Shown here piece by piece: positions 38,158 through 42,102 of a stretch of DNA of 64,000 nt. The translations under genes and the position numbers were made by a program. The notes beneath the pieces are model-generated. The model did no database searches. It was not told the DNA's origin and saw nothing but the letters and a program-made list of their open reading frames with translations. Position 1 is the stretch's first letter. The number at the start of each line of letters is the position of its first letter. Source of the stretch: a virus; IMG/VR virus record IMGVR_UViG_3300024279_000007, positions 676 through 64,675 of that record, one strand, 5' to 3'.

Positions 38158-38216
38158 GATGTTCTCCTGTTCAGGGGAGTGAGAAAGACACAGCACCCTG
38201 TCACGGTGCTGTAGCG
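38153..38216 (-). repeat. 64-bp hairpin-RBS unit, copy 2
   Basis: Identical to 37655-37718. Confidence 0.95.
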
Positions 38217-38954: not shown

Positions 38955-39935
38955 TTATACAGTCAGCAATTCGAGCATTTTGGTTTTGGCCTTGTCGCCA
39001 TCACCGAACCATGCGCTGGACAGACGGTTTTCAGCCGACTGGGCACGGACATGGTAATCGTAGTATTCCGTGACAGCGTTCAGCAAACCCCAACGCGTGC
39101 CCTTCACACCGTCCATGTTTGCGCCTTTGCCTTCTCCGTTAAACAGCGCCATGATGGTTTTGAAGCCACGCGTATCACGCACATCGGACACTTCTTCAGC
39201 AGTAGCCTTTTCCCAGTCCTTGTCGGACAGCAGTTCAAAGACGTACTGTTCAGATGCTTCAATCCCGCACGACTCCATTGCCAGCAACTTCATCTGGTGT
39301 GCCCATGCGGTAAAGCCATCGCGTTCAATGCCAAGCTGGTCCTTCATCTTGTTCGCATCAAACTTCGAACGATGCGACAGCTTGATTTCATGCTTTGCCT
39401 TGCCAGACAGCGCCATCGAGAGGGTGTTATTGCACACAACCCGAATGGTAGTCATCCGGCCAGACGTGGCCAGCGAGCCATCGGCAGACGTGGACAGCAG
39501 CAGATACCCGCCAACCATGTCAGCAGCAGACTTGATGACTGCCGTTTTGCCGATGTGAGCCAGTGCCCAGAAACGCCTGCCGCCGAACATCGTGCCAGCC
39601 GTTTCCATCGTGAACCCTGCGCATTCCGTCAGATCGCGGAAAAACTCCATGCAGTCACGGGGCTGGACAATCTGGTACCGGTCGGAGACGATGCCAAGGT
39701 GGTTTTTGTTGTCCGACCTGAACAGCACGTGCTGGTCATCAATGATGCGCTGGTTCGGGCCTTCGCCATAGCGAACGCGTGAACGGTTGATTTTCCAGTC
39801 CATCCCTGCTGCGACGATCCACTGGTCCAACGTCGTATCTGTTTCGAGACGCTGGCCTAGGCCGTGCCAAGGCGTGTCGCCAACATAAGCCATTTCGAAG
39901 GTGCCGTTAGCGCGCTGGGTAAGTTCGTGAGCCAT
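38955..39935 (-). CDS. DUF932 family (phage/plasmid-like) protein
   Basis: MAYVGDTPWHGLG, GIVSDRYQIVQP, GGRRFWALA, YLLLSTSADGS, T.IRVVCNNTL, WGLLNAVTEY. Confidence 0.9.
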   Translation of the reverse strand: MAHELTQRANGTFEMAYVGDTPWHGLGQRLETDTTLDQWIVAAGMDWKINRSRVRYGEGPNQRIIDDQHVLFRSDNKNHLGIVSDRYQIVQPRDCMEFFRDLTECAGFTMETAGTMFGGRRFWALAHIGKTAVIKSAADMVGGYLLLSTSADGSLATSGRMTTIRVVCNNTLSMALSGKAKHEIKLSHRSKFDANKMKDQLGIERDGFTAWAHQMKLLAMESCGIEASEQYVFELLSDKDWEKATAEEVSDVRDTRGFKTIMALFNGEGKGANMDGVKGTRWGLLNAVTEYYDYHVRAQSAENRLSSAWFGDGDKAKTKMLELLTV

Positions 39936-40008
39936 GATAAAACTCCTGAGTGGGTACTGCGGGTGAGAGAACACAAGCGGACTGGACAAGGCAATCCGCT
40001 TGTATGCG

Positions 40009-40326
40009 TCACCGGCGATCTGCGACAGGCTGGTCGTTCAGGTAGACCACGTGATTTTTCGAGTAGACGTTCGCACCAAGGGCACGCAGACGGCTAATGG
40101 TGGTGTTGGTCGGCCAGTTACGCAGGGTTTCTTCAATCACCTGCAACTCCATCTTGTCGTGCCGTACCTGCTGAAGGTTGGCAATGTGATGGCCATGCAG
40201 GTAGACGCGGGACACAGGCAGATCGTTTGCCTGATTCGTGCAGGCCTTCACTTCCGTGTTGCTGTGGTGCCAGTCACGAACGTGAAGTGCTGCATCCAGC
40301 ATCTGCTGTTCAATTTTGCGGGCCAT
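40009..40326 (-). CDS. Early hypothetical protein
   Basis: Shared initiation module; VYLHGHHIA, TTISRLRALG. Confidence 0.7.
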   Translation of the reverse strand: MARKIEQQMLDAALHVRDWHHSNTEVKACTNQANDLPVSRVYLHGHHIANLQQVRHDKMELQVIEETLRNWPTNTTISRLRALGANVYSKNHVVYLNDQPVADRR

Positions 40327-40339
40327 GATGTTCTCCTGT

Positions 40340-40408
40340 TCAGGCGAAGGGGTGGATGATCGAGATAACGACAGGGATGAAGATGATCAGCAAGAGAGCG
40401 AGTTTCAT
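40340..40408 (-). CDS. 22-aa hydrophobic peptide, first ORF of the early transcript
   Basis: GGAG RBS; MKLALLLIIFIPVVISIIHPFA. Confidence 0.5.
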   Translation of the reverse strand: MKLALLLIIFIPVVISIIHPFA

Positions 40409-40420
40409 TTTGTGTTTCTC

Positions 40421-40630
40421 CGGTGGCAGAACGAAGCACACTGAACAGTGCGCTTTGGTCTGCCGGACGCTGGCAGGCTTGGATGCCATGCGTCCGGTGC
40501 ACCTCGCGGTGGACTTCGCACTCGTCTGAGTTGTCACCTCAGAGTCCTAGCGGTCTCTGGTTGGGGTGTGGCTTCATCAGCCCTAGCTTTCCCTTCCCAG
40601 CTACTCGGTCGATCCCTCGACCTTGGACTC
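40421..40630 (-). ncRNA. Highly structured ~210 nt early 5' leader / small RNA candidate
   Basis: Chain of stems with GNRA loops from the predicted +1 to the first RBS. Confidence 0.55.
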
Positions 40631-40631
40631 A

Positions 40632-40660
40632 ATTATAGGACACAGCACTGTCAATGTCAA
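40632..40660 (-). promoter_or_regulatory. Perfect-consensus sigma70 early promoter TTGACA-17-TATAAT
   Basis: -35 at 40655-40660, -10 at 40632-40637. Confidence 0.95.
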
Positions 40661-40805
40661 ATAGGTGTTTACCCTAATGCCCTGTCTACCGCAGCACAAG
40701 GGCCTCACCTGTCTGAAAATTTTTTGCTATGCTTCGTCCGGGCCATTGCGTCCACATCAATCCGAACCCAGCCATGCGCTGGGTTTTTTGTTTCTGGAGC
40801 CACCT

Positions 40806-41207
40806 GTGAGCACAACAGTTGAAATCACGCTAGGCGACGATGGAAAGATCAGTGTCGGGTTGACCGATGCGCCGTCCAGCGTGCCTGAAGACATGCAGCC
40901 CGCCAGTTCACTGGCCGATGCCCTGCAAATGGCCAGGCACATTCTGAGTAACCCGCAGGCAGCGCAGCAGGAAGAAGCCAGCGAGCCACCTGACGGTGAC
41001 GATGACACAGCACTGTCTGGTAGTGCTGCTGCGACTGCCGGGTCAGGCGGCACGCCTAACGGCAAGGGTGGCGGCACGGGTCCGGACCAGTCTGGCCCAG
41101 CCGTGGCAGATGACACACAGGGTCCGGGTGCAGCCACTGGCAATAACGGACAGGACGCGAAAGCGATCTGGGATGCACTGGCAAACATGAATCTGCCGCA
41201 GCACTGA
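40806..41207 (+). CDS. Acidic low-complexity hypothetical protein
   Basis: GGAG RBS + GTG; first gene of the late strand. Confidence 0.65.
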   Translation: MSTTVEITLGDDGKISVGLTDAPSSVPEDMQPASSLADALQMARHILSNPQAAQQEEASEPPDGDDDTALSGSAAATAGSGGTPNGKGGGTGPDQSGPAVADDTQGPGAATGNNGQDAKAIWDALANMNLPQH

Positions 41208-41265
41208 ACAGTAACAGGCTGAATCACTGTTCAGTGTCGATCTGAACAGCGGTGGCATTTAATCA

Positions 41266-42102
41266 GTGATTCAGGGGGCTTCGATGCTAAACGGTATCAC
41301 GCGCACACATAAGAAGGCGTTCAGCGACATGCTGGACAAGCCTGAACCGGTCAAGTCCAGTCGCTGGGCTGCAATGATGGCTGATCCGGTTGAAAAGCTG
41401 AACACGCAAAAGGAATCGGTTTCCTCAAGCTCCCCTGAACAGGGGAACGCTGAACAGGCAGAAAACGCAGCACTTCTCAGATTGGCCGGTGGCGACCATG
41501 AGAAGGTGGCCATGTTAAAGAAGGCCATTGAAGCACAGGCAGCAGAGCGCTATGCCGGTGCCGTGGCACTTGACCACGCGATGAACGCAGTACTGCGCCG
41601 ACGTGAGGGACAACTGGAGAAGCTGACGCCTGAGTACGTGAAGATGCGTCAGGGCATCAAGTGCACTCCTGAGTTACTGGACAGCATACTCGCTGAAGTG
41701 GCTGAAGGCGTGAGCATCTATCGCATATGCAAGCGTGATGACATGCCAACGCCGTCTGCCGTGAACCAGATGCTGAACAGTGCTGACTGGCTCGCGAAGT
41801 ACCAGACCGCACTGCTGCGCCGTGCTGACAAACATGTAGACGAGATAGCCGATGCGTCGCGTGAACTGACGGCAGCAGTGGCGGCAGGTGCATCGTCTGA
41901 AGTGGTGAACGCCATCAAGGTGCACATCAATACGCTGCAATGGGTAGCAGCCCGGATCAATCCGAAGTACAGCGACAAACAGACCATTGACCTGAATGCG
42001 ACAGTGAAGATGACTGAATCACAGGTTGACCAGCGTCTTCGTGCTCTGCTGGGCAAGGCCGGTGTAACACTGGGAGAAGGTGATGCAGCTTCGTCCACCT
42101 GA
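41266..42102 (+). CDS. terS: Terminase small subunit with long N-terminal extension
   Basis: LLDSILAEVAEGVSIYRICKRDDMP...YQTALLRRAD...QWVAARINPKYSDK (Sf6/P22-type); upstream of terL. Confidence 0.8.
   Translation: MIQGASMLNGITRTHKKAFSDMLDKPEPVKSSRWAAMMADPVEKLNTQKESVSSSSPEQGNAEQAENAALLRLAGGDHEKVAMLKKAIEAQAAERYAGAVALDHAMNAVLRRREGQLEKLTPEYVKMRQGIKCTPELLDSILAEVAEGVSIYRICKRDDMPTPSAVNQMLNSADWLAKYQTALLRRADKHVDEIADASRELTAAVAAGASSEVVNAIKVHINTLQWVAARINPKYSDKQTIDLNATVKMTESQVDQRLRALLGKAGVTLGEGDAASST

Follow-up and report, generated by a model that had tools for sequence, protein, structure and literature searches.

Phages lambda, HK022 and T7 carry key timing devices in long structured leaders behind their early promoters, and to our knowledge few such leader RNAs have been described outside the enteric model phages. 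In the early region of T7, RNase III sites lie in the leader (R0.3) and between early genes, while the CI RNA of phage P4 and the c4 RNA of phage P1 are cut out of operon leaders. Bacterial mRNAs are protected from 5'-end-dependent decay by 5'-terminal stem-loops of the ompA type, and mgtL/mgtA and tnaC represent the leader-peptide attenuators. The N leader of lambda with its nutL site is a structured leader of ~200 nt that reaches from the early promoter to the first early gene, and the boxA consensus is GYTCTTTAANA-like (PMC5725501). The put element of HK022 begins at +3, spans ~70–74 nt and folds into two stems that are arranged as a V (PMC9378689). Put RNAs lie directly behind the early promoter or within ~270 nt of it, and their antitermination is protein-free and works through the beta' zinc-binding domain.

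Here we analyzed a structured leader in a 64-kb stretch of DNA (hereafter the window: bases 676–64675 of a 65,858-bp IMG/VR virus record rated complete) from a phage of uncultured source, which has a GC content of ~60% and encodes a P22-type large terminase with 53% identity or less to any GenBank phage. The leader sits in a divergent intergenic region between a plus-strand block of terminase and portal genes and a minus-strand run of small genes (Table 1). We infer from the promoter and the gene content that this run is an early operon, and because the early genes lie to the left on the minus strand, the leader was read on that strand, from 40630 downwards. It is best explained as a mosaic of four RNA modules, namely a 5'-terminal hairpin, a three-armed core, a perfect hairpin found only in the window and a two-tier hairpin, not as the one fully paired junction of the original prediction.

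The window leader resembles that of lambda nutL in its length of ~200 nt, in being structured and in a small hairpin that recurs down the early transcript; unlike nutL, it has no boxA, its loop has 7 nt and is not conserved in the homologous leader of a metagenome contig (L059), no N-like protein was recognised, and the first cistron encodes a hydrophobic peptide. Like putL and putR of HK022, it is a folded RNA just downstream of an early promoter and could, by this analogy, act without a dedicated protein, whereas its core has ~105 nt and three arms, starts from ~+26 and is absent from the nearest relative, the comparison being one of architecture and not of sequence. As in T7, the early operon belongs to a short-tailed phage and would be read by the host polymerase, the leader is long, and every cistron, the first one too, is preceded by an irregular two-part hairpin, but the stems here are shorter (6 + 8–9 bp) and have no sequence similarity to those of T7, the likeness lying in architecture alone and cleavage being putative; T7 has nothing resembling the three-armed core. 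As in the ompA type, a hairpin stands 2–5 nt from the predicted 5' end, and this position is kept at eight promoters while the sequence varies; here, however, the start site is a predicted one and the inverted repeat could be a DNA operator. Like mgtL and tnaC, the leader contains a short Pro-containing ORF in alternative stems, but it has no terminator, no conserved alternative pairing was found in it, and the ribosome site of the ORF is weak. The best-conserved nucleotides of the locus are non-coding, covary and have no Rfam match, and the presence of the core in one relative and its absence from another give a natural with/without comparison for the contribution of the module.

Table 1. Features of the leader and its surroundings
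Feature	Position	Strand	Description
Genes to the right of the leader		+	133-aa gene, terS, terL, portal gene
Carriers of the TAGGGT-N4-ACCTA block			L051, L053, L054, L057, L060, L062–L064, L068, L071, L058, L061, L065, L066
Upstream block	40661..40678	−	ATTAGGGT-N4-ACCTAT; abuts the −35 box
Early promoter	40632..40660	−	−35 TTGACA 40660–40655; −10 TATAAT 40637–40632; 17-nt spacer
5'-terminal hairpin	40607..40622	−	GGUCGA-GGGA-UCGACC; ~3 nt from the predicted 5' end
Core, three arms	40497..40600	−	105 nt, 84% identity to L059
Core arm 1			CUGG/CCAG, then GGG/CCC, then hairpin GGCU-GAUGA-AGCC
Core arm 2			GACCGC/GCG-AA-GUC around hairpin UCUGAG-GUGACAA-CUCAGA (40543–40525)
Core arm 3	40511–40500		GNRA-loop hairpin CACC-GCGA-GGUG
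Putative 12-codon upstream ORF	40539..40577	−	MKPHPNQRPLGL, stop UGA; AUG 40577 in GAUGA loop
Window-only perfect hairpin	40463..40497	−	CCGGACGC...GCGUCCGG, inner UGGCA/UGCCA stem
Two-tier hairpin	40425..40464	−	Outer GGCAGA/UCUGCC 6 bp, inner 9 bp; apex CUGUUCAG
Originally predicted stems, with position	40622–40607; 40543–40525	−	GGUCGA-GGGA-UCGACC; UCUGAG-GUGACAA-CUCAGA
Further originally predicted stems, located		−	UAGCU/AGCUA, GGCU/AGCC, ACC-GCGA-GGU, CCGGACGC/GCGUCCGG, last stem topped by CUGUUCAG
Ribosome site of the first cistron	40421–40418	−	GGAG
First cistron	40408 (ATG) to 40340 (stop)	−	22-aa hydrophobic peptide MKLALLLIIFIPVVISIIHPFA
Genes to the left of the leader		−	4.2-kb run of small genes: 22-aa hydrophobic peptide, Kyano_Gp96-family protein, DUF932 protein, several without family match

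Early promoter, gene order and relatives

The early promoter had been called perfect, and it is: TTGACA-17-TATAAT is a 12/12 match and the sole such promoter in the 64-kb window, where 0 would be expected by chance. Since sigma-70 promoters start transcription ~7 nt downstream of the −10 box, the start is predicted near 40625, giving a leader of ~217 nt. The spacer between the two boxes contains a small palindrome, ACAG-TG-CTGT. The block upstream of the −35 box is kept in the two relatives described below, and the pattern TAGGGTNNNNACCTATTKGACA (TAGGGT-N4-ACCTATTKGACA), taken from it, showed that Castellaniella prophages and unrelated phages have promoters of this type, all of them with leaders of 60–90 nt.

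A TAGGGT-N4-ACCTA block fused to a TTGACA −35 box is common to unrelated phages and prophages of 33% to 60% GC, including Castellaniella MAGs (carriers in Table 1), and most of these promoters hold an inverted repeat in the −35/−10 spacer; the block itself is probably bound by some widespread regulator. In the window, the spacer (40654–40638) reads TGACAG-TGCTGTGTC and differs at only two bases from the 3' half of the units (TGACAGGGTGCTGTGTC) that form the GUGACAG hairpins further down the early transcript, a similarity that may come from common ancestry or from a protein that binds both. The plus strand carries, back-to-back with this promoter (40725–40794), an extended −10-like TGCTATGCT and then a conserved box, TCCGGGCCATTGCGTCC, after which a hairpin with a T run (40764–40786, plus strand) stands just before the 133-aa gene, terS and terL. 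This layout is also present in L006 (~1850–1800) and L059 (905–835), on the minus strand of the locus in both, and by analogy resembles a late leader of the lambda pR'-tR' type, which would need an antiterminator.

The closest complete IMG/VR relative, L006 (G778), has a 63-kb genome with 66–67% identity in terS and shares the promoter block and the gene order with the window. Its leader has only ~57 nt, in which a 5' hairpin precedes the ribosome site for a hydrophobic peptide of 20 aa, encoded where the window has its first cistron (1677–1615, minus strand of the locus), and it has no core; a covariance model of the core found no match anywhere in the L006 genome. The missing core in the closest complete relative indicates that it is dispensable for this type of phage. 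The second relative, L059, is a 1,467-nt metagenome contig that was found by the promoter-block pattern scan and carries a homologue of the long leader, with the gene order of the window (terS, small-protein gene, promoter, leader, Kyano_Gp96 gene) and no hydrophobic peptide at the place of the first cistron. The first cistrons of the window and L006 thus encode strongly hydrophobic peptides of 20–22 aa; small membrane peptides in such a place may act on the host membrane.

Wider searches kept the number of known cores at two. The covariance model (R1) recognised only these two members among 49 sources and five complete relatives. Further terS homologues with 65–80% identity are P0002, P0003, P0004, P0007, P0009 and P0010. 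In GenBank phages, blastn with the whole region and with the core alone gave only one 31-nt chance match, exact or gapped core patterns had 0 matches in IMG/VR, and the leader DNA had only one 27-nt chance match in 401 Burkholderiales genomes. Scans of metagenome and genome collections with the terS profile gave 600 pattern matches, of which 0 were confirmed.

Folding and conservation of the leader RNA

All complementary segments named in the original prediction are present on the minus strand in their proposed places (Table 1). The description of the leader as almost fully base-paired was too strong, as the minimum-energy fold pairs 136 of 210 nt (65%). The helix GAGUCC/GGACUC, thought to close the junction, is unlikely to form in the RNA, because its GAGUCC strand (40630–40625) directly follows the −10 hexamer, lies between it and the predicted start near 40625 and is probably untranscribed. 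The fold of 40630–40421 has −91.4 kcal/mol (z = −5.2 versus dinucleotide shuffles), and that begun at 40625, which lacks the closing helix, has −90.1 kcal/mol (z = −4.1). Against 319 other 210-nt segments of the same genome with GC correction, the leader had z = −1.84 and ranked 8th of 319, and the opposite strand folded equally well (−93.8 versus −91.4 kcal/mol). The stability excess is located in two perfect hairpins, 40497–40463 (−23.8 kcal/mol, z = −5.1) and 40464–40425 (−23.8 kcal/mol, z = −4.05), and the conserved core folded alone is thermodynamically ordinary (z = −0.9 for the window, −0.7 for L059). A transcript of the plus strand was considered and rejected: upstream of it there is no promoter on the plus strand, and the minus strand is favoured by the consensus fold described below.

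The conservation of the leader differs from module to module. Its first ~25 nt cannot be aligned to L059, yet a hairpin is found there in both. At eight high-GC promoters of the TAGGGT type, such a hairpin, varying in sequence and in one of the eight cases including a G-U pair, stands 2–5 nt from the predicted 5' end; L059 has a weak version of it and the low-GC promoter group has none, and as an alternative reading the inverted repeat would be a DNA operator. The perfect hairpin 40497–40463 is a 31-nt insertion relative to L059. The two-tier hairpin, which ends 3 nt before the ribosome binding site GGAG, has 65% identity to its counterpart in L059, where the two-tier shape is kept with 4 compensatory pairs and the apex reads UUGUUCAG. 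Outer plus inner stems of this kind precede the first, second, third and fourth/fifth cistrons and are also found in L006 and L059; the last hairpin of the leader is the first of the operon's hairpin-plus-ribosome-site units.

The core is the most conserved part, with an identity between the window and L059 higher than those of the flanking genes (65–68%) and the promoter region (69%); a run of 19 nt, UCAGACGAGUGCGAAGUCC, is identical in the two, and conservation is high also at the unpaired positions of the core, exceeding that of the neighbouring genes. A lack of covariation had been named in the original prediction, together with a deletion that has no effect, as the sign against it; covariation is present. 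RNAalifold on the whole-leader alignment gave 45 consensus pairs with 9 compensatory changes (5 within the core and 4 in the last hairpin), 4 wobble changes and 0 broken pairs, statistics that are thin in that the core alignment, and the structure derived from it, consist of two sequences only. Sliding the pairing partners by 1–3 columns as a control left 0 compensatory pairs, and column-shuffled alignments reached at most 6–7 compensatory pairs versus the 9 observed, with a consensus energy of −25.1 ± 4.0 versus −51.6. The consensus fold had z = −6.4 in the sense and −3.9 in the antisense direction, and five flanking alignments on both strands had z values between −2.0 and +1.4 (coding ones, −1.3 to +1.4). 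The flanking values near zero and the weaker antisense value show that the signal is local and favours the sense strand, and is no general property of this pair of phages.

The core helices with support from the alignment are CUGG/CCAG, GGG/CCC, GGCU/AGCC, GACCGC/GCG-AA-GUC around UCUGAG...CUCAGA, and CACC/GGUG. In L059, CUGG/CCAG changes to GUCG/CGAC, GGCU/AGCC to GGAU/AUCC and CACC/GGUG to CCCC/GGGG, and the counterpart of UCUGAG...CUCAGA is UCUGAC...GUCAGA. Three of the originally proposed helices, GAGUCC/GGACUC, UAGCU/AGCUA and CCGGACGC/GCGUCCGG, are missing from L059, the sole homologous leader found, and the covariation backs CUGG/CCAG in place of UAGCU/AGCUA. When the cores of the window and L059 were folded separately, both adopted the three-arm layout; in the full-length fold of L059 the middle part was paired otherwise. 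Alternative pairings of the 19-mer with the last hairpin, or of CUGG with the ribosome-site region, were rejected since they are not conserved in L059. These comparisons support the view that part of the leader behaves as a selected RNA structure, and we regard the core as probably a candidate new cis-regulatory RNA motif with two known members, optional within the phage group. The higher identity of such a short segment could partly come from mosaic exchange instead of selection.

A protein-coding cause for the conservation of the core was rejected in sense and antisense frames, as the differences compensate stems and no ribosome sites are present. The putative upstream ORF extends into the UGAC hairpin, ending in its 5' arm, and L059 has MMNPHPDDRPL in the same frame. 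The window and L059 differ at 7 places in this ORF, none of them at a second codon position and two of them synonymous, and 3 of the 7 are already accounted for by stem compensation. Its AUG has a purine tract 12 nt upstream, which is paired with a C-rich strand, and in L006 this spot aligns with the ribosome site that serves the hydrophobic peptide. Translation of the ORF is possible but doubtful, because the GGAG-N6-9-AUG site common to all real early genes is missing from it.

The core resembled no described RNA among those searched. The Rfam search proposed in the original prediction, done with Rfam 15, gave 0 matches in the window at the gathering threshold, ribozymes, c4/CI antisense RNA, riboswitches and CRISPR repeats included, and no credible family match in the leader region at E up to 10, the best (E = 0.039–8) being snoRNA-type chance matches to CUGAUGA. 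ARAGORN predicted 0 tRNA or tmRNA genes in 40200–40900. A hammerhead ribozyme was rejected by inspection: CUGAUGA and GAA are present, but the opening pair of stem III is G-C, stem I has no partner, and the would-be cleavage site reads ACC/ACA.

Possible roles of the leader

The part of the original prediction that stands is a functional early leader RNA; its specific readings as nut-like or put-like antiterminator or as protein sponge found no support. Our own overall picture, which we judge about evenly balanced between right and wrong, is an early-operon leader of ~217 nt with a protective 5' hairpin, a regulatory core and a processing or insulation hairpin, and the details of the mechanism are more tentative than the picture. 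The hairpin ~3 nt from the 5' end would shield the mRNA from 5'-end-dependent decay. The core would serve as an accessory domain for regulation in cis and would tune the expression of the operon through the binding of a factor or the ribosome. Arm 1 would pair the purine tract with the C-rich strand and show an AUG in its loop, and from this layout our leading guess is control by a short upstream ORF or a start-site-like decoy, the engagement of which would open arms 1 and 2. Hairpin 40497–40463 would be a recent palindromic insertion without a conserved role, and the hairpin-plus-ribosome-site units would probably act as processing or insulation points, like the RNase III sites in the early region of T7.

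A bolder version, which we consider rather improbable, makes the core a new class of cis-acting phage RNA. It would bind directly to the machinery of host transcription or translation, be it as a put-like modifier of RNA polymerase or as a ribosome- or ligand-sensing switch, and some members of the phage group would carry it as an optional module that sets the output of the early genes. Should the core prove to target RNA polymerase or the ribosome, it would count as a second case in which early phage transcription is controlled without a protein, or as a riboregulator of a new kind; otherwise it would be one more structured 5' UTR.

The leader may also have no specific function, being a long spacer that is structured to escape Rho or RNases and built from hairpin-forming repeats and octamer palindromes common in the phage, with the shared core as a recently exchanged mosaic segment. 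The z of only −1.8 against the genome background, the thermodynamically ordinary core, its absence from the closest complete relative, the hairpin inserted only in the window and the octamer at the apex of the last hairpin (85 copies in the window) would all be accounted for in this way. We nevertheless regard a functionless leader as unlikely in view of the excess of compensatory pairs over the shuffled alignments, the strand preference, the flanking z values near zero, and the conservation of unpaired core nucleotides above that of the neighbouring genes.

Rather unlikely, too, is that the leader or its core works as a processive antiterminator, either through the core alone as in put or through the UGAC-loop hairpin and a phage protein as in nut, in which case RNA polymerase would pass the hairpins that lie along the early operon. 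Lambda nutL and HK022 putL likewise directly follow an early promoter, and a contact surface would be expected to show the high conservation found at the unpaired positions of the core. A nut-like reading is best supported by the hairpin of arm 2, which looks like a protein-recognition hairpin: its GUGACAA loop, as originally pointed out, matches the GUGACAG loops of repeats at 38213–38189 and 37715–37691, so that GUGACAR-loop hairpins with differing stems occur 3 times in the early transcript of the window and 2 times in that of L006, and two of them were flagged as terminator-like with the tail UCUUUCUCAC. These tails are, however, U-poor and paired into the outer stem, making them weak terminators at best. 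The 6-bp stem of the arm-2 hairpin carries a 7-nt loop instead of a boxB-type pentaloop, the equivalent loop of L059 has 8 nt (GCUGACCG) with only UGAC constant, and L006 has GUGACAG units without a copy in the leader and without the core. No boxA was found within 3 mismatches in 39147–41512, which includes the leader, and the early genes gave no match to an N-like protein family. A put-like reading meets a conserved part that is three-armed, has ~105 nt and starts near +26, an architecture unlike that of put. A 144-aa early protein encoded directly behind a GUGACAG unit (37659–37225, minus strand) contains an internal Arg-rich stretch, RERDAKRRVARAMLR, which would favour the nut-like form and makes this protein a candidate for binding the hairpin.

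We find it quite improbable that the leader is cut at the two-tier hairpin to release a stable small RNA acting in trans as a decoy, a sponge or by base pairing. Hairpins would stand at both ends of such a product, which would come from the strongest promoter, and the apex CUGUUCAG is complementary to CUGAACAG, which directly precedes the ribosome site in four early genes; that complementarity is not specific, since the apex is part of a loop of 4 nt and the octamer comes close to being self-complementary, and the octamer is absent from the first ribosome site of L059. No c4/CI or other Rfam family matched, and no other copy or target of the core was found in the genome. A protein sponge of the CsrA/RsmA type was rejected because GGA motifs, 6 in ~220 nt and thus near chance, are not enriched in loops, the only one in a hairpin loop by inspection being that in the GGGA loop of the 5' hairpin.

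It is extremely unlikely that the leader is the structured 5' UTR of a type I toxin-like gene which keeps the 22-aa peptide untranslated until the RNA is processed: a small hydrophobic peptide does follow directly behind a long structured leader, but the core of L059 precedes a soluble Kyano_Gp96-family gene without such a peptide, the L006 peptide has a 57-nt leader without the core, and no antisense promoter was found.

The clade octamer

The apex of the last hairpin is an instance of an octamer, CTGAACAG, that marks the clade. The window contains 85 copies on both strands (852–63376) versus 2.6 expected, and 70 copies of CTGGACAG. A density of 2.4–2.8 octamers per kb was observed only in the window, L006 and L059, and other relatives have no such density. 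The hairpin form of the octamer occurs in 0 of 401 sampled Pseudomonadota genomes, an absence that argues against a role as host uptake signal. Most copies are co-oriented with the genes, and often two of them stand 15 nt apart and form a hairpin.
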